From NCBI GenBank assembly GCA_016839745.1, contig JAEOTS010000005.1:1-13683 (forward strand): a stretch of 13,683 bases of DNA. The letters are read 5' to 3'. Position 1 is the stretch's first letter. Every line of letters begins with the position of its first letter. Positions 2,340 to 13,682 of this stretch are shown piece after piece. The notes under the pieces are model-generated. The model saw only the letters and a list, made by a program, of their open reading frames with translations. It did no database searches and was not told where the DNA came from. The position numbers were made by a program, and so were the translations under genes. Source of the DNA: Promethearchaeota archaeon. GTDB lineage: Archaea > Asgardarchaeota > Lokiarchaeia > Sigyniarchaeales > SOKP01.

Positions 2340-2472
2340 TGTATGGTTCCAGCGTAACGAGGATGAAAATTGGGAATTTTCTCTATAATATATGTTTTCG
2401 ATTTTTTTCTTTTAAATAGATTGATAATTTGATCCAGGCAATAATGAATCACATTTTTTTAATGATTATAAA

Positions 2473-2685
2473 TTGAAAGGCATAAATGATTTAGTGTTTG
2501 AATGTTTGAAACCTAAACTGGAATATATTTGTGGTAAAATTCAGAATAGTTTAGAGAATGTTACAGATGAAACAAAAGAACACCAGTCTGGTATTATAGA
2601 GTCCTATGCCAAAGTAATTCATGAGATGCTGAAATATGTTGAAGGTAAGGAATACAGATCAATAAAGCCTCTTACTGAACCTTAA
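2473..2685 (+). CDS. Small hypothetical helical protein (start uncertain)
   Basis: 70-codon ORF in otherwise stop-rich intergenic DNA, with protein-like amphipathic composition. TTG start has no clear SD. Confidence 0.5.
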   Translation: MKGINDLVFECLKPKLEYICGKIQNSLENVTDETKEHQSGIIESYAKVIHEMLKYVEGKEYRSIKPLTEP

Positions 2686-2777
2686 GAGGGATTTAAAAAT
2701 TAGTTAATCATGGAAACATAAAATAATAAAACAAAAGTGAAGGGAGCGTAAAGCTGGATTTCAAATTTAGTATAGAA

Positions 2778-3335
2778 TCAATAATAAATTTTAAAATCTC
2801 TATTAAGTGTTCCTTTTACATCATGCTGAGAAAAATGTAGTAATGAATATATACAAAAAGTAATGCCTAAAATGATTACATCAATACCACTCATAAGAGA
2901 TTTATAAAACCGGATTGGTTGTAAGGAACTACAACATAAAAATGTATTTGGATGTGGAACTGGTATTAGCACAATAAGAAATATTATGAATGTACATCCT
3001 ACCACTAGCTTTAAACTGTAATTAATCAATAACTTCAAATGAGAATTTATTCTCTTAAAATAAGAATTTATTAGCAGAAAAAGAATTATAGCTATAATCA
3101 TCAAAATGATGTTGAATGACACACATGATAATACATACGTTACTGTTTGATTGGAAAGGCTTGTAATCAACTGACTAATATCTTCTTGATAGTGATAATG
3201 TATCACTCCAACCCAGGAGGGCCAGTTCCAATTTAAGCTGATAATATTAAACCAAGAAATAAATATGATAACTAAAATAAACAAATTAACCGAAAGATTT
3301 AGCCTCTGTTTGGCCTTTATTTTCATACTTCTCAC
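2778..3335 (-). CDS. Hypothetical membrane protein, about 4 TM helices
   Basis: Four hydrophobic stretches, with a PHPNTFLCCSS loop before the last helix. TTTATAAA box at 3356-3363 fits a leaderless or short-leader transcript. Alternative ATG at 3326. Confidence 0.7.
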   Translation of the reverse strand: MRSMKIKAKQRLNLSVNLFILVIIFISWFNIISLNWNWPSWVGVIHYHYQEDISQLITSLSNQTVTYVLSCVSFNIILMIIAIILFLLINSYFKRINSHLKLLINYSLKLVVGCTFIIFLIVLIPVPHPNTFLCCSSLQPIRFYKSLMSGIDVIILGITFCIYSLLHFSQHDVKGTLNRDFKIYY

Positions 3336-3618
3336 TTATATATATCAGTATCTGCTTTATAAAAATTATTGCAAATCAGATTTTAATTTATAGCTTGTTT
3401 TAACAAAAAGAATAGATAATATGATAAAAAATTAAAGGGAGGGACTTTATCGTAAATGCTGCTATTAGTAACAAAAAGTTGAATATCAATTTTTACTTCA
3501 AAACAGAATAACATAGTTTATAGAGGATTCATGTTAAAGCGATATTTTCTTTTTATTATTGCTATAGATGTTTTTAAAAAACTTTGGGAGATTAATTTTA
3601 TTAAAAGACAAAATAATA

Positions 3619-3655: not shown

Positions 3656-6600
3656 ATGCAAGAATTTAAGTCGTTTTTAGCTAGGAGCCAACGCTATTTA
3701 GTAAATGGCGAGTTCAAAAAAGCAATCAGAGAAGTTAAAACCGCACTTAATATAGATCCATCTCAGTTTTTGGGTTGGGTTACACTTTCATCGTGTTATT
3801 TCAATATTGGAAAGATAGATAAATCTATAGAAACTGTGAGAAATGTAATGAAATTTAATAGCAGATTTAAAGAGAGGACTGATATACTCACCGCAGCATT
3901 TCAATATGCTAAAGATTCCGATAAACTTATAGAAAGTCTTAAGAAGGCTTTAACTAATCCAACATCATTTAAAGGTGAGTGGACACTTGTGGGAGGATAT
4001 TATCTCAGTAAAAAGGAGTATGATAAAGCAATTGAAGCGTATAAACTCGCGATAAAACAACATCCTGATTGGCCTAGTATGTGGTTAAACCTTTCGGCAG
4101 TATATATTGAAATGGAGGAGTTTGATAATGTAATCGAGACTGCCAAAAAAGCTTTACAAATTAAACATGATTTTAAATTTGCATTACTTCATCTTGGTAT
4201 TGCTCATTTTAAAAAAGGGGATAAACAGGAAGCATTAAAGATTTGTGAACAGATCCTTAGATTAGATCCTTTATTTGAAGAAATGATAAAGCTTCAGAGC
4301 AAAATCTTAAAAGAAATGGGAAAATCGACCATTAATGATGAAAATCCTATTGAAATCTATGAAGGAATAGAGCTGAGAAAAGATCAAAAAGAAGTATTAT
4401 TCGAATTAGAGAAGTTAAGTAAAAAACCTATTAAGCCTCAAGTAAGAATAAATGCATTGTTTAGTACTGAAGCTGGTTTTGTAGCGAGAGCAGGTTATAT
4501 TGTTGAGTTAGGATTAACTTTTGCACAACATATTCCAGAGTCCATTGCAAATTTAAAATACCTTAAAGTCCTAGAGGTACCATTTTCAATGACAGAATTG
4601 CCTGAAAATATAGTAAAACTTCAAAACTTGAAACGATTATTGTTTATTCCTAATTTTAGTCCTGTACTCGCATTTAAGCGTCAAAAAGCTGAGCAAATCT
4701 ATCTTGATAAAAAAATTTGCCAGCTAAAAGGACTAAAAATTTTAAATATAAGAGATAGTAGTACTATCACCCATTTACCCGAATGTTTAGGACACCTGCC
4801 AAATCTTCAAGAAATAAATGTAGGGAACTGTCATAATTTGTATGGTATACCTGAAAGTATTAAGATAAATTTTAAACCTGAAGGAGATGATTTTAGGTTA
4901 AAGTTGATTCGAAGAACTCCCAATAAAGATAATTCGAATGAAGGATGGGAGCATTCCAAGTTTATAAAAACACCTGGACCAAGAAAGCCTCTATTAACTC
5001 CTTATACTCATCCTAGAGCAGTTAATTTAAAGTTTGAAAGAAAAAACTTACCAGAAAAAGAAATTATGTTTTTAGAAAGGCTAGAAAAATCTTTGGGGTA
5101 TCCAATAACTAATCAAAACACAAACCCTCGATACAACCGAGGTTCTTTTTTTCGAACTACAAATGATACTGTTTCAGAATTATGTATTGGAGGTTCTAGG
5201 ATCATGACTGAAATTCCTGAAACGATCTCTTGCTTGACTAATCTAGAAAGGCTCACGATAAATGCGTCTTCTAAACTGAAGACAATAACTGCGCAAATAG
5301 GTAAACTCAGTTCCTTAAAATATTTAAGTGTTCACGGAAAGGTGACCTTGCCTTATACAATTGGAAAATTAAAAAATTTAGAGGAAGTTATATTTGCACA
5401 CTGCTCAATTCCCCAGTCATTTACTAAATTAAGCAATATACGGTTAGTTAAAGTTAATAACTGTCAGGACTTCAATAATCTAACAAATTTTAATAATTTA
5501 CAATCTCTTAAGCATTTAAATATTTCAGAAATTAATCATCTACCTATAAATTTGGGTGATCTTCCAAATCTTAAGACCTTAAATCTCCTTATGATAAGAG
5601 AAGTAAAAAAACTTCCTGAAAGTCTAGGTAGACTTAGTTCACTCGAACAATTAACAATAAGTCATTGTAGGGAGATAATGCTAGTGCCAAATACAATTGG
5701 ATCTCTTAAAAATTTAAAAAAGTTAGAGATTCAAGCATGTCCAAAAATAAGCCATTTACCAGAATCAATAAAATATTTAGAGTCCCTTCAAGATTTAAAT
5801 ATTGAAAACTGCAATTTTAAAACTCTCCCACAAGACTTAAAAAATTTCAAAAACCTTAAGACGGTTTCGATTTTAGGTAATCCAATTTCTCCTCGTAAAA
5901 TATTGGACAAGTATGAGCATAATCTTCTTAGTGAGGAAGAGGTACTTCATCAATTAATGTTTATAATAGAATTTTGGAAAGAGGTAGAAAAAGATTTTTG
6001 TGGAAGGGGAGATGTGATAATTGACTATGAAAATATAAGGGTAACCGCCATTCAATTGCTTCATAATTTAATGATGAATCGTACAAGTACGCCAACTGAA
6101 CAGGAGAGATTTTATAAATTATTTGAAAAAATTATCTCATCTGATAACGATATTGCTGTACGTGATGCTGCTCTTGAAAGTCTTATAAAATTGTATCCAA
6201 AAAAATCTAAAGATTCGCTTAATTGGGTAATAAAAAACGAATCTTCCTTTCTTCTTCTCAAAAATTTATACAATCTCTTAAAACAATATCCAGAGTTAAC
6301 AGAATTCTGGAAACGATTGCGAAATAGGTTTTGTAGTGTATTAAACATTTCTGCGAAGGAATTAGAAGGAATACTACCTTTTTTCTTCTTTCAAATAATT
6401 GAAGATTTTCACTTTAAATTTGATGAGGCTATGCTTAGACAATTTGCTATAAATAGTATTAGTACGGTTAAAGAAAATAAAGATAGAAAAACATTTTATG
6501 CGATAGATGAGGGGCATGTAATTGCTTTGAACATTAGCGGTTTTGGTTTCATGGAGATTCCTGATTTCATTAAGCATTTAACCAGACTTCAATATTTAAA

Positions 6601-7756
6601 TGTAAGTCATAACCAAATAACATCTTTACCACCAAAGATAGCTGAATTTGAATATTTAAAAGAAATTGATTTAAGCTATAATAAATTTACCACATATCCA
6701 TCATTACCAAAACAAATAAAGCGTATAAATATTTCACATAACCCTCTGAAATCAGTTCCAAAAGAAATACTTGAGGGATTCATTAAAGAATATATTAACT
6801 ATAGAATAGATATTAAAGACGTAGAAGTTCTAGCTTATTTAAAATTAGTATTTGGATTGACCCTAACCCAAATATCGTCGATTTCTGAAGTTTTAAATCA
6901 AAAGAATAAAAATTGCTACATTCTTACTGATAAAAGCAATATTAGAGGCTTATTTATCAATGATCCGACAGTTAATGGCTTGATGCATATACCAGATGTA
7001 ATTAATCAGTTAAAATATCTTGAATTTTTAGATATTTCAAATCACCCTTCTTTAACTACAGTTCCAAAAGCGCTTAGTTCATTGAAAAATCTTACATATT
7101 TAAAATTGTACAATAATAATCTGAGTGAATTCCCCTTATCAGCACTAGAATTACTTAATCTTGAATATCTCAATTTAGGAAGTAATATGATTCACGAAGT
7201 TCCAAAAGATATCAATCATCTTTCTCATCTTAAAACACTAGATTTAAGTTTCAATAAAATAAAGAAGATACCTAAGAAATTATTTGGCATTAATTCTCTT
7301 GTTCAATTAAATTTTGATGGAAATGAAATAAATGAAATTTACTCTGATCTAGCTCAATTAAAAGATTTACAAGAACTCTATTTAGGTTTTAATAATCTTT
7401 CTACTCTTCCAGATGAATTAACTAAACTCACTGCTTTAAAAAAGTTGAGTATATGTGGGAATAAAGTAAGTTGTCTACCTAGTACTATTGGAAATTTAAA
7501 AAATTTAATCATGTTAAATGTATCAGGAAATACTATTAATGAAATACCTGATAGTATTGCACACTTACCACAGTTAGAATATCTAGATTTAAGTGAAAAT
7601 ACATTGGAAAGTGTTCCAGACTCAATTGCAGATATTGATACTTTAAAACATTTTAACTTAAGTTATAACAATATGAATGCTCCCTCACCTAAAATTAATA
7701 ACATAAAAGGATTTATTTTTAAAAGAAAACTAACTCGTAATGAATTTCAATATTAA
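3656..7756 (+). CDS. Large TPR + leucine-rich-repeat protein (TPR - LRR - LRR - HEAT-like - LRR - LRR)
   Basis: About 6 TPRs in aa 1-220 (e.g. EYDKAIEAYKLAIKQHP, WLNLSAVY). Many LxxLxLxxNxIxxIPxxIxxL repeats in four blocks. HEAT-like helices around DNDIAVRDAALESL (about aa 830). No NTPase, GTPase or kinase motif seen. Confidence 0.9.
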   Translation: MQEFKSFLARSQRYLVNGEFKKAIREVKTALNIDPSQFLGWVTLSSCYFNIGKIDKSIETVRNVMKFNSRFKERTDILTAAFQYAKDSDKLIESLKKALTNPTSFKGEWTLVGGYYLSKKEYDKAIEAYKLAIKQHPDWPSMWLNLSAVYIEMEEFDNVIETAKKALQIKHDFKFALLHLGIAHFKKGDKQEALKICEQILRLDPLFEEMIKLQSKILKEMGKSTINDENPIEIYEGIELRKDQKEVLFELEKLSKKPIKPQVRINALFSTEAGFVARAGYIVELGLTFAQHIPESIANLKYLKVLEVPFSMTELPENIVKLQNLKRLLFIPNFSPVLAFKRQKAEQIYLDKKICQLKGLKILNIRDSSTITHLPECLGHLPNLQEINVGNCHNLYGIPESIKINFKPEGDDFRLKLIRRTPNKDNSNEGWEHSKFIKTPGPRKPLLTPYTHPRAVNLKFERKNLPEKEIMFLERLEKSLGYPITNQNTNPRYNRGSFFRTTNDTVSELCIGGSRIMTEIPETISCLTNLERLTINASSKLKTITAQIGKLSSLKYLSVHGKVTLPYTIGKLKNLEEVIFAHCSIPQSFTKLSNIRLVKVNNCQDFNNLTNFNNLQSLKHLNISEINHLPINLGDLPNLKTLNLLMIREVKKLPESLGRLSSLEQLTISHCREIMLVPNTIGSLKNLKKLEIQACPKISHLPESIKYLESLQDLNIENCNFKTLPQDLKNFKNLKTVSILGNPISPRKILDKYEHNLLSEEEVLHQLMFIIEFWKEVEKDFCGRGDVIIDYENIRVTAIQLLHNLMMNRTSTPTEQERFYKLFEKIISSDNDIAVRDAALESLIKLYPKKSKDSLNWVIKNESSFLLLKNLYNLLKQYPELTEFWKRLRNRFCSVLNISAKELEGILPFFFFQIIEDFHFKFDEAMLRQFAINSISTVKENKDRKTFYAIDEGHVIALNISGFGFMEIPDFIKHLTRLQYLNVSHNQITSLPPKIAEFEYLKEIDLSYNKFTTYPSLPKQIKRINISHNPLKSVPKEILEGFIKEYINYRIDIKDVEVLAYLKLVFGLTLTQISSISEVLNQKNKNCYILTDKSNIRGLFINDPTVNGLMHIPDVINQLKYLEFLDISNHPSLTTVPKALSSLKNLTYLKLYNNNLSEFPLSALELLNLEYLNLGSNMIHEVPKDINHLSHLKTLDLSFNKIKKIPKKLFGINSLVQLNFDGNEINEIYSDLAQLKDLQELYLGFNNLSTLPDELTKLTALKKLSICGNKVSCLPSTIGNLKNLIMLNVSGNTINEIPDSIAHLPQLEYLDLSENTLESVPDSIADIDTLKHFNLSYNNMNAPSPKINNIKGFIFKRKLTRNEFQY

Positions 7757-7778
7757 AATATACAAAAGTGATGATAAA

Positions 7779-9101
7779 ATGATATTAAAAATTTACAATT
7801 CTGAAATTGTGGATTGTTCTTCAAGTTGCAATATATTATTACCACCACCAGATTCTTTGAAGTTAATTATTGATTTGTTTTTAAGAATATGCGAATCTGA
7901 GGCTGTTGAGAACATAGTAGAACATTCCATTACATTAGAGTTTGAAGATGATACAATCGGACTTATATCCCCTAATGGTAATACTTTTGGTCATTATGAA
8001 TGGTACATTAATAAGTTTGTCAAACACAGGCTAGTTTATGATCTGCAACTTGGAAATAGCGCCAAACGAAATAAGACATTTGGAATATATATTTCAAGGA
8101 TTCATGATATAGAGGAACACACGCACCATCATAGAGCAGGTTATGCCAACACTCTTTATTCTATTCCTGCTGGAATAAAGGGTATTCGTAAATCTGTAGA
8201 AGTAGTTAAGTCCCTTCTAAGTAATAATACATCCAATTTACCAACCTTTTTATATCAAAAAACATTGCAAAATTTTGAAATAAGTGCAAAAATCATCTGG
8301 AAAGTATGGTCTCTGTATAAGAAAATATCTGAAATTGGACAAGTTCAGTGTGGAGAAGTGGATTCGATTTCTGGCTCTACAAGAGAAATGAATTTATACT
8401 TAGGAAATATATGTTTAGGAGGCCATCAAGGAAGACCTCAAGGGGATAAACACTTTGCTGATATTCAGAATGTACTTAATGAATATTATCCAGAATATAC
8501 TATTCAAGAAGTGGGAGAAAGTGCAACGGACACAAATGGGAGGAAAGCATTATATAAAAATACACCTGTTAATGAAGTTGCCCGTGTTGAGCCTTCAAAT
8601 ATGTATTATAGGCAAAAAGTCGATACTAAAGAAAAAGAATTACTTATTCAGATCCAAAAGAAAACTGGAAAACTATTCCCAATGACAGAACATTGGTCTC
8701 ATGGTTTCTCAGTCATTGAAGGGAATGTAGAAGGAATTAATCTAACTAAACAAGATCCACATGAGATTATAGAAATTTTGGAACAATTTTCTCATCTAAA
8801 AAGGCTCAATTTAAATGAGTGTAATTCTTTAGAGCATTTAGACATTGGTTCTCTTAAACATTTGGAAAGCTTAAGAATACATAATTGTAAGAAATTGAAG
8901 TCAATCTCAAATTCAATTGGGAAATTAAACCATTTAAAAATGCTTGAGATGCGTAATTGTCTCCAATTTTCTTCATTTTCTACAACCATAGAAAATCTAT
9001 CTCTTCAAAAATTGATTTTAAATAGGGTAGGTAAATATAAAGATGTACATTTCAGAGATGAAAAAAGTATAAAAGATAATATGCCCAAAATTATTCCCTA
9101 G
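7779..9101 (+). CDS. Unknown N-terminal domain (xSSS motif, His-rich patch) fused to a short C-terminal LRR block
   Basis: C-terminal LRRs (LKRLNLNEC, LESLRIHNC, LKMLEMRNC) follow a helical cap. The N-terminal ~275 aa are non-repetitive, with SEIVDCSSS and HDIEEHTHHHRAGY. The ORF track starts at 7740. ATG 7779 is preferred because it has a GTGAT SD-like site upstream and removes the overlap with the previous gene. Confidence 0.8.
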   Translation: MILKIYNSEIVDCSSSCNILLPPPDSLKLIIDLFLRICESEAVENIVEHSITLEFEDDTIGLISPNGNTFGHYEWYINKFVKHRLVYDLQLGNSAKRNKTFGIYISRIHDIEEHTHHHRAGYANTLYSIPAGIKGIRKSVEVVKSLLSNNTSNLPTFLYQKTLQNFEISAKIIWKVWSLYKKISEIGQVQCGEVDSISGSTREMNLYLGNICLGGHQGRPQGDKHFADIQNVLNEYYPEYTIQEVGESATDTNGRKALYKNTPVNEVARVEPSNMYYRQKVDTKEKELLIQIQKKTGKLFPMTEHWSHGFSVIEGNVEGINLTKQDPHEIIEILEQFSHLKRLNLNECNSLEHLDIGSLKHLESLRIHNCKKLKSISNSIGKLNHLKMLEMRNCLQFSSFSTTIENLSLQKLILNRVGKYKDVHFRDEKSIKDNMPKIIP

Positions 9102-9113
9102 AGGTAAGATTAC

Positions 9114-9911
9114 ATGAATTCAAGTACTGATCTTAAAATTATTTTATACCCTCCAAAATTTCCGCTCTCTGCGCATTTATATATAACAAACCGGTGTAAC
9201 CTAGATTGCGAAAAGTGTTATTATAGAAAGGTGGATGACCAGAAAAAACAACTCTCATATAAAACAATAAAGAAATTATTTCTTGAATGGAAACAATATC
9301 ACCTTACATCAATTGCTATTGGTGGCGGTGAACCTTTGCTCCATCCTGAAATTGAAAAGATTATTAGCTTAGGTAAGGAACTGGGGTTTTTTATGGCAAT
9401 AACCACCAATGGAACCCTATTAAAACCAATACATCCCGATAGATTACATATTTCTTATGATGAAATTCATTCCACTTGGAAAAACGAGGAATTGATTCAT
9501 ACAGCAATTAATTATTATAAAAAGATGGGATGTAAAGTAGGTATGAATCATGTCTTAACTTACTTCAAAAATATTGATTATATCATGCAAAATTTTCCGG
9601 AAATAGATAACCTACTTCTAATAAGAGAAAAACCCAAATCCAAATTTACTGAGTGGCATAGAATTAAACCTAATAGAAAATTTTGGATTGAGGGGTGTAT
9701 TAAAGGTTCCAAGTGCGAACAAGGGATTTTAAGCTTCCATGTAAATTATGATTTAATGGCTTCTATATGTTCAAATTTTTACGATAAGATTAGATATACC
9801 ACTTTATCAGAAACATGGGAAAAAATAAAACAATATAAATGCAAAATTAGAGATTTAGCCTTAGTTTCAAACTACAACAGAAAAGAACTCAAAATAAACC
9901 AGAAAATATAA
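9114..9911 (+). CDS. Short radical SAM enzyme with C-terminal Twitch/SPASM-like Cys segment
   Basis: CNLDCEKC (CxxxCxxC), IAIGGGEP, ITTNGT, and C-terminal EGC-x5-CEQG...ICS...C. SD GAGGT (9101-9105) overlaps the stop codon of the upstream gene. Confidence 0.9.
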   Translation: MNSSTDLKIILYPPKFPLSAHLYITNRCNLDCEKCYYRKVDDQKKQLSYKTIKKLFLEWKQYHLTSIAIGGGEPLLHPEIEKIISLGKELGFFMAITTNGTLLKPIHPDRLHISYDEIHSTWKNEELIHTAINYYKKMGCKVGMNHVLTYFKNIDYIMQNFPEIDNLLLIREKPKSKFTEWHRIKPNRKFWIEGCIKGSKCEQGILSFHVNYDLMASICSNFYDKIRYTTLSETWEKIKQYKCKIRDLALVSNYNRKELKINQKI

Positions 9912-10007
9912 TTTACTACAAATAAGCAACGTCCTCTATTTAATTCTTTATAGGGTAAGTATTTACGAATTTCTCTTCAAAAACCGACTCAATAACAAAA
10001 TAAAAGT

Positions 10008-10068
10008 TAAGGGAGGGAAAAATTGGAAAAAAAAAGATATTTAAAAAATTTCTTTAATCCCTCCCTTA
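10008..10068. repeat. Perfect 11-bp inverted repeat TAAGGGAGGGA ... TCCCTCCCTTA with 39-nt AT-rich spacer
   Basis: Arms at 10008-10018 and 10058-10068, lying between convergent transcription units. Confidence 0.8.
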
Positions 10069-10668: not shown

Positions 10669-13209
10669 ATGAGTGGAACAGAACAAATAAATTATCCTCC
10701 TGATGAGATATTATCTCCTGCTCCTACTCGGAGGAAAAATTTTGAGCATATAATACTCTGGATGTTAAGTAACAATGAAGAGTGTGAATGGTCGGATTTT
10801 ACAGAGAATCCAATAGGTATTAGTCAATCCACACTTTCAATTTACAAGAATAGGTTAGAATCTAAGGGATTTATTGAAAATGTAAGGAGAGGGTTTTATC
10901 AAATTACTAGCGCTGGTCGAGAGAGATATTATGAGTTATCGCGGATGAAGAGCACAAAAAGAAAGTTAAATTATCCTCCAAAAGCGATATTGAGAAGGAG
11001 GAATTACGATCATTGGATTTTATGGATGCTGTATAATAATAATTATTGTAAATGGAGTGACTTTTTGGATGATAATAAACCAGTGTATATCAACCAATCC
11101 TCTTTATCAAAGAATTTGAATTTATTAATGGAAAAGGAAAATGCATATGTGAAGAAGGATAATAAGCGATATGAAATTACAGAAGCAGGGAAAATAGAAT
11201 ATTCTCGTATGTTAAGGTTGTATGATCTTGACCGCCAGTCAATTTTAGAGGAAGAAAGTAAGAGAATTGAGGAAATCACCAAGAAAACTCGGGAATTCTT
11301 TAGGAAATATAATATTGAGGATCGGGATGTAAAATTTCGATTTTTGAATAATGTTTTAAAGATGGATTATGCGAAGGTGCAAAGTTCATTAGATAATGAA
11401 GAGGATTTTAAGAAGATTTTGTTATTTTTTTCGATTAATCACCCAAATTCGTATCCTGGATATATTTCTCCGGAGGAATTTTCTTTAAAGTTTGGTATTG
11501 AAAAAATAATATTAGAATTTCATATTCTTCAGATAGCAGAGAAAGAGATTTATCCGATAAAATTTTTTAAGTTAAACACTAAAGAAGGCAAAACTTTTTA
11601 TTTTCAGGCTGAGGAAAAGATAGAGAAAGTACTGCGAGCTATTGTGGATGAATATGTCGCAAAATTTACGTACTTGAATAAGTTAGGGGGGTATCCCTAC
11701 TATACCATGTATTCATTGATAGATGATATTTTAGGTGATATTTGTGATAATTTATTTCATAATGATTTAAGAGATTCACTGGGAGAATTTTTAGCAGAAT
11801 ATATTAAATATTTGACTTATAAAATCGAGACTGAAAAACAATTAGTTGATGCGTCTGATAAGTTAGAAGGGTTTATGTATGAGAATATCCCATTAATGCT
11901 TCAGAGTTTTGAATCTGGTGATTTAGAGCATCAATTTAAGGCAAAGAAGGAACATAGATATTATTTATATCCAGATACATTAAAAGCGTTGGCACCATAT
12001 TACATGAAAAATATCAAAACGGTTTTTCAGAAAACTATTGCTAGTATTGAAGAGAGAGATCTTGATAAAGCTTTAGAAGTATTAAACTCAGCAATTAAAT
12101 CAGAACCAGAAAAAATCGAATTATACATTTTGAATTCGATTGTTGTATCTCTTTGGAGGAGACATAGGGAAGCTATAGAACTTTTAGAGGAACAGCTTGA
12201 CAAACTTACGGATGTAGATGATGATCAACTTATTCCAATAATTATGTTTATCTTAACTTTTTGTCATTTATCGTTAGGAAATTTTGAAAAAGCCTTAGAA
12301 ATTTCGCATGATGCCATTCAAATAAACTCTAATCACCCTATTTCACATTTAAATCGAGCATTTATTTTTGGTTATAACCTTCTTCATAGATGGGATCCTG
12401 AGAATGCTAGTTTAGATTATTTCTTAGACGAGATAGAAAAAACTATATCATTGGAGTCCAATACTTTAAATTTATCTAGATATTACCAACTGAAAGCTAT
12501 TATCTTCTTTGAGCTGAGAAGATTTGACGATGCTGTTGAAGCAATTGATACTGCTATCGAATTAAAACCTAAAATAATAGACTATTATTACAAAAAAATT
12601 CATGGGTTCATATTAAACAAGAGATTTAAAGAAGCAATAGAATTTGTTGAAATTGCCATTAACCAATTTCCTAATGAAAATAAACACTTTCTAAATAAGA
12701 AGGCATATATTTTGGACAAAATGGGTTATTATGAAAATGATCCTATGAAATTCGAAGAATCCCTAGAAATTTTGGATAAACTTATTGAATTATATCCCGA
12801 TGATTATGACTTACTTAACTCAAAAGTTTATGTATTAGCTTATTTAGAACGAGAAAGTGATGCAATAAAGTTAGCAAAAGAATTAGTGAATCTTGATCCT
12901 AATTGTGGGAATTATCATGATTCATATGGAGAAGTATTAATGATGTTCAAAAGGTATAAAAAGGCAATAGCATTATTCAAAGAAGCCTTAAATCTTGAAC
13001 GTTATGGCCATTTTGTCTATCAAACATTCATTAAGCTAGGCATCTGTTATTATAACCTTGAAGAGTACGATTTAGCTAAAGAATGTTTAGAAGAAGGTAT
13101 GGAGCAAACCTATTCTTGTTTGTGTAACCAAGAAAAGAAAGAACATTGGTTAGAAAAAGCAAATACATATATGCTCAAAATCAAGGAATTGAATATAAAA
13201 ACTCAATAA
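10669..13209 (+). CDS. Tandem winged-helix DNA-binding domains + central helical region + C-terminal TPR array; putative transcriptional regulator
   Basis: Internal duplication NYPP..IL...R(R)N(F/Y)(E/D)H.ILWML.NN..C.WSDF...I.QS(T/S)LS...Y.IT.AG, a MarR/ArsR-like wHTH pattern, at about aa 8-90 and 101-180. TPRs from about aa 450 (e.g. RRFDDAVEAIDTAIELKP, YKKAIALFKEALNL). Confidence 0.85.
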   Translation: MSGTEQINYPPDEILSPAPTRRKNFEHIILWMLSNNEECEWSDFTENPIGISQSTLSIYKNRLESKGFIENVRRGFYQITSAGRERYYELSRMKSTKRKLNYPPKAILRRRNYDHWILWMLYNNNYCKWSDFLDDNKPVYINQSSLSKNLNLLMEKENAYVKKDNKRYEITEAGKIEYSRMLRLYDLDRQSILEEESKRIEEITKKTREFFRKYNIEDRDVKFRFLNNVLKMDYAKVQSSLDNEEDFKKILLFFSINHPNSYPGYISPEEFSLKFGIEKIILEFHILQIAEKEIYPIKFFKLNTKEGKTFYFQAEEKIEKVLRAIVDEYVAKFTYLNKLGGYPYYTMYSLIDDILGDICDNLFHNDLRDSLGEFLAEYIKYLTYKIETEKQLVDASDKLEGFMYENIPLMLQSFESGDLEHQFKAKKEHRYYLYPDTLKALAPYYMKNIKTVFQKTIASIEERDLDKALEVLNSAIKSEPEKIELYILNSIVVSLWRRHREAIELLEEQLDKLTDVDDDQLIPIIMFILTFCHLSLGNFEKALEISHDAIQINSNHPISHLNRAFIFGYNLLHRWDPENASLDYFLDEIEKTISLESNTLNLSRYYQLKAIIFFELRRFDDAVEAIDTAIELKPKIIDYYYKKIHGFILNKRFKEAIEFVEIAINQFPNENKHFLNKKAYILDKMGYYENDPMKFEESLEILDKLIELYPDDYDLLNSKVYVLAYLERESDAIKLAKELVNLDPNCGNYHDSYGEVLMMFKRYKKAIALFKEALNLERYGHFVYQTFIKLGICYYNLEEYDLAKECLEEGMEQTYSCLCNQEKKEHWLEKANTYMLKIKELNIKTQ

Positions 13210-13250: not shown

Positions 13251-13682
13251 ATGGGATACAAATATGTAAAGGGTGTCAAGGAGAATCCCAAATTTGGGAA
13301 ACTTTTAGCTGTAAATTTTAATCCTTATAAGGTATGTAGCTTTAATTGCGTGTACTGTGGAATTGGACCAACAACGGATAAAACTTGTGAACGTAAACTA
13401 TTCTATCCTCCTGAGGATGTGTTTAGAGAAATAAGAGATTATATTGAAACCCACGGAGAACCTGATTATGTTTGGTTAACTGGATTAGGCGAACCAACTC
13501 TATATTCAGGATTTACGCAACTTTCTAAGATGATTAAAGGGGTATATCCAAATATCAAAATTGGAGTGTATTCAAATGGTTCATTATTCTTTCGTGAGGA
13601 TGTAAGAAATGATTTTTCTTTATGTGATTTGATGTTAATCAATCTGAATAGCGTGTGTCCGATTGAGTTTTCAAAGATTTGC
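13251..13682 (+). CDS. Radical SAM protein (COG0731-like Fe-S oxidoreductase), 3' truncated; not in ORF track
   Basis: Translates as MGYKYVKGVKENPKFGKLLAVNFNPYKVCSFNCVYCGIG...WLTGLGEPTLY...VYSNGSL, with CxxxCxxC and GEPTL motifs. The frame is open to the window end. Confidence 0.88.
   Translation, partial: MGYKYVKGVKENPKFGKLLAVNFNPYKVCSFNCVYCGIGPTTDKTCERKLFYPPEDVFREIRDYIETHGEPDYVWLTGLGEPTLYSGFTQLSKMIKGVYPNIKIGVYSNGSLFFREDVRNDFSLCDLMLINLNSVCPIEFSKIC

Follow-up and report, generated by a model that had tools for sequence, protein, structure and literature searches.

The stretch of DNA analyzed here, referred to as the window, comprises positions 1 to 13,683 of contig JAEOTS010000005.1 from a Promethearchaeota archaeon of the Lokiarchaeia (assembly GCA_016839745.1). 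It contains a gene for a radical S-adenosylmethionine (SAM) enzyme and, directly upstream, a gene for a protein that we call its partner. The listing of open reading frames (ORFs; translation table 11) places three ORFs on the plus strand, at 3656-7756, 7740/7779-9101, and 9114-9911. The first (3656-7756) encodes a giant scaffold protein of 1366 amino acids (aa) with blocks of tetratricopeptide repeats (TPRs) and leucine-rich repeats (LRRs), and it ends with a TAA codon at 7754-7756. The start of the middle gene is assigned to the ATG at 7779 because its homologues, including the closest, begin at MILKIYN; this start leaves a gap of 22 nucleotides (nt) after the giant gene. The encoded 453-aa protein consists of the partner domain of about 283 aa (7779-8627), which belongs to a family without annotation, fused to a C-terminal cap and about four Cys-containing LRRs (8628-9101) recognized by Pfam and by their similarity to the LRRs of the giant protein. 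A short N-terminal motif, I10-V11-D12-C13-S14, is encoded at 7806-7820 and is conserved in enzyme-linked partners; it is a candidate for the site that the enzyme recognizes or modifies. The stop codon of the middle gene is the TAG at 9099-9101, and the radical SAM gene starts after a gap of 12 nt, with the ATG at 9114. The junction at 9099-9113 (plus strand) reads TAGAGGTAAG, in which GAGGT overlaps the TAG of the partner gene and is followed by 12 nt to the start codon. The third gene (9114-9911) encodes a 265-aa radical SAM enzyme of family PF04055. The original prediction, made from the window alone, had described three co-directional genes with gaps of 22 and 12 nt and a Shine-Dalgarno sequence of the radical SAM gene lying over the preceding stop codon; both descriptions are borne out by these coordinates. 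The window's own genome carries a single copy each of the partner and the enzyme.

The conserved unit is not the trio but a two-gene pair, in which a domain of about 280 aa is followed directly downstream by a radical SAM enzyme of about 250 aa. On contigs with enzyme homologues, the gene directly upstream encodes a homologue of the partner domain without LRRs. Among 400 Asgard genomes, the partner family is found in 12, all in the window's own family, and the enzyme in 8; the partner lies directly upstream of the enzyme on the same strand in all seven evaluable cases. The same upstream, co-oriented layout recurs on metagenome contigs L001, L002, L003, and L031 and on the contig of P0134. Outside Asgard, the pair occurs in an Elusimicrobia metagenome-assembled genome (MAG; enzyme 40% identical), in an Archaeoglobaceae MAG, and on contig L037, with enzyme identities of 35-42% overall. 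The distribution spans Lokiarchaeia ("Promethearchaeota") MAGs, the Archaeoglobaceae and Elusimicrobia MAGs, and two contigs with mobile-element genes. On L037, the order is reverse transcriptase, partner, enzyme, and DnaN, then E2, JAB, and E1 genes. On L036, the order is a TrwB-type coupling protein, a cut partner gene, the enzyme, a MoxR-like AAA ATPase, and a DUF2201 protein; in this region (4356-5857), an opposite-strand IS605-family TnpB gene truncates the partner after about 79 codons, and the downstream radical SAM gene is intact. Across loci, distant pairs adjoin genes for reverse transcriptase, DnaN, RadC, MoxR-like ATPase, and DUF2201 proteins, and no conservation is seen among L001, L002, and L003 for the small ORFs that adjoin the pair. 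A scan of IMG/VR with the enzyme alignment returned only generic radical SAM cores and no full-length member. When the neighborhoods of the radical SAM homologues are checked, as the original prediction had proposed, the partner-domain gene co-occurs in every evaluable locus, whereas LRR genes mostly do not.

All 17 partner genes next to an enzyme gene, including the fragment truncated by the insertion sequence in L036, encode (I/V)(I/V)-D-C-(S/T) in the N-terminal segment, around residues 10-14. The motif is missing from all six solo partner genes (G246, G247, G216, L032, L033/34, and L035), and each has lost it through a different lesion, be it internal deletion, N-terminal truncation, or substitution. 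An alignment of the 16 full-length enzyme-linked partners shows that Asp-Cys is invariant in every member and that the only invariant residues are D12, C13, K99, G132, and G135. The solo genes keep K99, G132, and G135, and the loss is therefore specific to the N-terminal tail. In the AlphaFold2 (AF2) model of the partner, confidence is low for residues 1-15, ahead of a first strand that begins with residue 16, which suggests that the motif sits on a flexible tail that the enzyme could reach. On a tree built without the N-terminal columns, the motif and enzyme traits each change five times on the best topology, always together. The xSSS run named in the original prediction was considered as the motif and rejected, as the alignment of the 16 partners keeps only D-C-(S/T).

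A functional tie between the radical SAM enzyme and the N-terminal domain of the middle protein is supported by these results, because, in archaea and bacteria alike, all evaluable loci have the two genes side by side in the same orientation and because the motif tracks the enzyme gene (17/17 vs 0/6). The three-gene arrangement of the window is likewise not due to chance, since the same genes occur in the same order in three other loci whose partners are only 35-57% identical to that of the window. An adjacency devoid of functional meaning, with an N-terminal motif unrelated to the enzyme, is highly improbable: the pair is kept across two domains of life at enzyme identities down to 35%, the three-gene order is found in four loci despite the divergence of their partners, and the association of motif and enzyme is perfect.

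The enzyme matches PF04055 with 52.9 bits against a cutoff of 29.5. Its C28-x3-C32-x2-C35 (CxxxCxxC) signature is invariant in 57 homologues, and a GGGEP motif is also present. Four more Cys residues (C195, C201, C219, and C243) are invariant and are candidate ligands of an auxiliary Fe-S cluster. The alignment with SkfB, SuiB, PqqE, and MoaA extends through the C-terminal region up to residues 251-258. Pfam reports no SPASM domain (PF13186) in the enzyme, and the earlier SPASM/Twitch label is reduced to Twitch-like at best, on account of the four extra invariant Cys residues. Matches to NCBIfam models all fall far under their cutoffs and cover only residues ~20-110. About 60 close homologues of ~250 aa share 42-70% identity with the enzyme and come mostly from Loki-, Promethe-, and Thorarchaeota and Bathyarchaeia records. 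The structural model (predicted local distance difference test score, pLDDT, of 89.4) shows a partial TIM-barrel fold, and some 20 distinct radical SAM enzymes of solved structure match it at Z of 19-21. Its neighbors include SuiB (Z 21.3), SkfB (Z 20.1, over model residues 5-251), viperin (Z 20.0), PqqE (Z 20.0), BlsE (Z 19.6), MoaA (Z 19.0), anSME (Z 16.4), and BtrN (Z 14.9). By its modeled fold, the enzyme belongs to the SPASM/Twitch/viperin/MoaA group; comparison of the models does not separate protein substrates from small-molecule substrates.

The partner domain itself has few relatives. An exhaustive search of 1.84 billion protein representatives with a hidden Markov model (HMM) gives 59 representatives of the family in all, and a word-indexed search with the N-terminal domain of the middle protein gave one relative. 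None of 29 members contains a Pfam family, NCBIfam, PHROG, and PADLOC yield no family match, and a comparison with PDB sequence profiles gives no match at E values up to 10. The AF2 model (pLDDT 81.8; predicted template modeling score, pTM, 0.81) is an alpha/beta sandwich. Fold searches with Foldseek against the PDB, with VIA against the PDB (wide and second look), and against BFVD found nothing above background; the best matches were at E 0.067 (Foldseek, PDB), Z 7.1 to ferredoxin-like fragments (VIA), and E 0.004 with a template modeling (TM) score of 0.12 (BFVD). The modeled fold is thus one without a convincing relative, and the domain could be registered as a new domain family. Assignment as an N-terminal nucleophile (Ntn) hydrolase, with a propeptide cleaved before the Cys, was considered but was not upheld by VIA. 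The top Foldseek rows are proteasome subunits, EgtC, and GlmS (E 0.07-0.6, TM 0.1-0.15), and none of these came back in the VIA second look at Z of at least 3.4. Two further candidates for catalytic residues, both flagged by the earlier reader, were also discarded: the His run HTHHH lies in a variable low-confidence loop, and neither it nor CLGGHQG is conserved across the partner family. Two Ser/Thr-rich giant proteins, P0157 (3978 aa) and P0185 (2920 aa), match the partner profile at about positions 185-250, 12 and 4 times, respectively. The repeated unit is by appearance a small alpha/beta module, and the matches could reflect either true remote kinship or an artefact of composition.

The best explanation of these observations, to which we assign a probability of about 0.5, is that the enzyme acts on and modifies the N-terminal Asp-Cys segment of the partner, with the LRR tail and the scaffold being a lineage-specific addition for anchoring or targeting. 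In the proposed mechanism, a compact radical SAM enzyme with a second, Twitch-like cluster site would abstract a hydrogen atom within the flexible N-terminal segment of the partner, at or next to the invariant Asp-Cys. The outcome would be a post-translational change of this segment, such as Cys oxidation or a thioether cross-link, and the modification would mature or switch on the partner domain. In the Lokiarchaeial clade, the partner gained its C-terminal LRR tail and the giant TPR/LRR scaffold gene joined the operon; through these additions, the domain, once matured, would presumably be linked to a target protein or an assembly. The four extra invariant Cys residues of the enzyme, the agreement of the partner and enzyme trees on two sister pairs, and the presence of the protein- and peptide-modifying enzymes SuiB, SkfB, PqqE, and anSME among the structural neighbors were counted in favor of the partner as substrate. 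The original prediction that the radical SAM enzyme modifies the N-terminal domain of the middle protein therefore stands as far as the functional tie is concerned (adjacency and motif); the modification itself, like its chemistry and the role of the LRRs, is what we infer.

Several points weigh against modification of the partner. Among the structural neighbors, the small-molecule enzymes viperin, BlsE, and MoaA (Z 20.0, 19.6, and 19.0) score on a par with the peptide maturases. No recognizable RiPP (ribosomally synthesized and post-translationally modified peptide) recognition element (RRE) is present on the enzyme; with the radical SAM core starting near residue 17, there is no room for one. 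The association of motif and enzyme is perfect but comes from few independent events: only two to three of the concordant changes fall on well-supported branches, a sign test gives p of 0.25-0.5 and is underpowered, and significance is not claimed. Moreover, a catalytic Cys in a partner enzyme working alongside the radical SAM enzyme would produce the same pattern. In a different account, the partner would itself be an enzyme, or else a subunit that binds or carries the substrate; both proteins would act on a small molecule or nucleic acid, and Asp-Cys would be a catalytic dyad or a ligand in a shared site. Viperin-like nucleotide modification, or a DNA or RNA modification carried by mobile elements, would be examples. 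Besides the tie among structural neighbors, the PADLOC pVip and NCBIfam viperin models match the N-terminal core of the enzyme, and the partner carries a strand-PGxxGxxK-helix element that includes the invariant G132 and G135 and, together with K99, resembles a phosphate-binding site; the reverse transcriptase, DnaN, RadC, MoxR-like ATPase, and DUF2201 genes next to distant pairs are also in keeping with it. However, the viperin models cover only residues ~20-107, at 57 bits against a cutoff of 180, and the motif lies in an unstructured tail. The solo partners lose just this tail and keep the putative core site, a pattern that a detachable modification site fits better. Joint action on a small molecule or nucleic acid is a real possibility, if an unlikely one.

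Several loci show variations on the pair. On contig L021 (G185:C24), one enzyme gene is preceded by two partner genes in tandem, each with the DCS motif, and on L024 (G181:C66), a partner gene and an enzyme gene are followed by another partner-like gene that is highly divergent. A single enzyme may serve several partners. In L003, a Lokiarchaeial contig from marine sediment, the pair lies between 300-nt direct repeats (8041-8340 and 11350-11649) that are 90% identical and spaced by 3309 nt. The repeat is a duplicated 3' half of a TetR-family gene and resembles a scar of cassette insertion or duplication. The same contig holds a 65-aa remnant of a second partner gene (9792-9986) between partner and enzyme. 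Solo paralogues without the Asp-Cys tail (L014, L017, and L033) are intact ORFs that recur in several assemblies, one of them, P0138, on five contigs. Because these solo paralogues are intact and recurrent, the partner domain seems to have a function independent of the enzyme as well. In L019 (G216:C107), at 2449-3573, a motif-less partner-like gene is divergent from a different, distant radical SAM gene that reaches only 36.9 bits against the family HMM.

The LRR layer has a narrower distribution than the pair. In the giant protein, Pfam recognizes TPRs at about residues 10-225 (TPR_1/2/8) and three LRR blocks (LRR_14, LRR_8, and LRR_4), and finds no enzymatic domain and no nucleoside triphosphatase (NTPase). 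The TPRs are followed by Cys-containing LRR blocks (~290-740), a conserved non-repeat region (~745-945), and two further LRR blocks (~950-1340). In the middle protein, the LRR region at residues ~340-420 is the sole Pfam match. Its LRR tail is closest to the Cys-containing LRR block of the giant protein at residues 520-730 (37% identity, E 7e-9), in agreement with the earlier claim that two of the genes carry the same LRR modules. The LRR-fused partners of the window, L001, G238, and P0134 form one clade (Shimodaira-Hasegawa approximate likelihood ratio test, SH-aLRT, 99-100), and in all four loci a giant TPR/LRR gene lies upstream and the enzyme downstream; P0147 is a second LRR fusion, independent of this clade. 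The enzyme and partner trees agree on the sister pairs window + L001 and G238 + P0134/P0047. G238 comes from the same genus as the window. Its giant protein aligns collinearly from residue 1 to residue 1366 with 37% identity, compared with 35% for the partner and 58% for the enzyme. Scaffold and partner thus diverge faster than the enzyme. None of the genes flanking the module in the window is found on the G238 module contig, and the module therefore moves or is rearranged as a unit. Most partner-enzyme pairs are without any LRR, and the LRR tail and giant TPR/LRR gene are a lineage-specific addition in one Lokiarchaeial clade. The view of the LRR and TPR parts as what defines the system did not hold up.

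The three genes could also form an LRR/TPR-guided immune or conflict module, as the original prediction had suggested; the scaffolds would sense an invader, and the domain matured by the radical SAM enzyme would be the effector. This explanation overlaps with modification of the partner. The points in its favor are circumstantial. The distribution is patchy (12 of 400 Asgard genomes, in one family), the three-gene module has unrelated flanks in two genomes of one genus, and the scaffold and partner are far more diverged than the enzyme. Distant pairs lie in mobile-element-like surroundings (TrwB, TnpB, reverse transcriptase, and the E2/JAB/E1 genes), and a gene with an ARPP-1 domain is located upstream in the window. 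Set against these points, the three proteins match no PADLOC system and contain no STAND or other NTPase and no known toxin, nuclease, or effector domain; PADLOC-DB 2.0 gives them a weak TPR match (PDC-M71B, 26.9 bits) and partial pVip matches on the radical SAM core only. IMG/VR holds no member, sensing by LRRs is not ancestral since most pairs are LRR-free, and many non-immune roles are known for LRR proteins. An immune role of this kind is unlikely on balance. A more specific version, which we regard as doubtful and quite unlikely, is that the three Lokiarchaeial genes are an NTPase-free conflict or immune module, in which the scaffolds recognize an invader or cell structure and an effector domain of a fold without recognized relatives is armed by radical SAM chemistry at the N-terminal Asp-Cys, the bare pair being its mobile ancestral form on plasmid-like elements of bacteria and other archaea. 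An immune-related function, if true, would widen the known range of LRR-based defense beyond NTPase-driven receptors.

The surroundings of the three genes in the window contain several further features. An inverted repeat, AAGGGAGGGA...TCCCTCCCTT, spans 10009-10067, 98 nt past the stop codon of the radical SAM gene. Three copies of AAGGGAGGGA bracket the block, at 3435-3444 (direct, upstream of the giant gene), 10009-10018 (plus strand), and 10058-10067 (minus strand); the downstream pair makes a hairpin with 39 nt in its loop. Three copies compare with 0.69 expected, and 7 of 200 shuffles also reach three; the downstream inverted repeat could represent a hairpin of the terminator type, an element end, or a product of chance. 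The ARPP-1 domain (PF20208, E 6e-29) is encoded on the minus strand at 1173-2222, 1.4 kb upstream of the operon, in a protein with a C-terminal zinc ribbon. A 185-aa ORF at 2778-3335 (minus strand) has no family match in any library. Downstream, 10669-13209 encodes an 846-aa protein with two winged-helix domains and TPRs, followed after 41 nt by a second radical SAM gene (13251-13682) that is cut by the contig end. This second radical SAM enzyme is unrelated to the first, and a search of the window's own genome with P0003 missed it. Together with the winged-helix/TPR gene, it makes a second adjacency of TPR and radical SAM genes in the same 13.7-kb contig.

To our knowledge, only a few radical SAM enzymes have whole proteins as their substrates (sulfatase maturation, glycyl-radical activation, QhpD, and Mmp10), and each has revealed new chemistry. 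The libraries and literature searched contain no description of the pair or of the partner, and both are undescribed within that scope; the pairing of an enzyme with a protein substrate is itself a known kind of system. If the partner is indeed the substrate, both the substrate family and the target motif would be new, and the LRR-coupled form would be unusual. The pair offers a compact enzyme, a defined candidate target in the invariant Asp-Cys of a flexible tail, natural controls in the form of solo paralogues without the motif, and a spread over archaea and bacteria. The resulting hypothesis is clean and accessible to mass spectrometry. The LRR-fused form is a rare coupling of recognition scaffolds to a protein that would depend on a radical SAM enzyme, in the closest archaeal relatives of eukaryotes.

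Comparison with known systems places the pair near several families, each of which differs from it in defined ways. Nucleotide-binding LRR (NLR) and STAND receptors also combine LRR and TPR solenoids with a non-repeat domain in a multi-gene locus. They differ by their NTPase, as the three proteins of the window contain no NACHT, NB-ARC, or other NTPase domain (Pfam finds only TPRs and LRRs in the 1366-aa protein and only LRRs in the 453-aa protein). The prokaryotic viperins (pVips) have a radical SAM core of similar size, and PADLOC pVip models match residues 22-118 of the enzyme, with viperin itself a structural neighbor. However, the enzyme falls well below the cutoff of the viperin model (NF038283), and viperins are without the four C-terminal Cys residues and without an obligatory upstream Asp-Cys partner. 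RiPP maturase systems differ in that the upstream gene of the window encodes a folded domain of ~280 aa rather than a short precursor peptide, and in the RRE, which the enzyme lacks. Another analogy is anSME, a radical SAM enzyme with auxiliary Fe-S clusters and without a peptide-recognition domain; its target is a Cys or Ser close to the N-terminus of a protein of full size, and it appears among the structural neighbors. The analogy, which the original prediction had drawn, breaks down at the substrate motif and at the 7-Cys SPASM signature: anSME has ~370 aa, a 7-Cys SPASM domain, and two auxiliary clusters, whereas the window's enzyme has ~250 aa, four extra Cys residues, and no PF13186 match, and the partner has no C/S-x-P/A-x-R motif, no P/A-x-R after DC(S/T), and no sulfatase domain. 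The Twitch enzymes SkfB, BtrN, SpeY, and MoaA are compact as well and carry a single auxiliary cluster, housed in a short beta-hairpin domain at the C-terminus, and SkfB forms a Cys thioether in a peptide. They show no family-level sequence match to the enzyme, and the presumed substrate here is a folded ~280-aa protein encoded upstream rather than a short peptide or a sugar. QhpD is a radical SAM enzyme that makes Cys-to-Asp/Glu thioether links in a protein encoded nearby, QhpC, which is the gamma subunit of quinohemoprotein amine dehydrogenase. The pair of the window differs from this system in that QhpD belongs to the SPASM enzymes and QhpC is small and has a leader, and no search made here turned up sequence similarity to either. 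The likeness lies in the residues involved: the Asp-Cys pairing in the N-terminal tail of the partner recalls the chemistry of QhpD.

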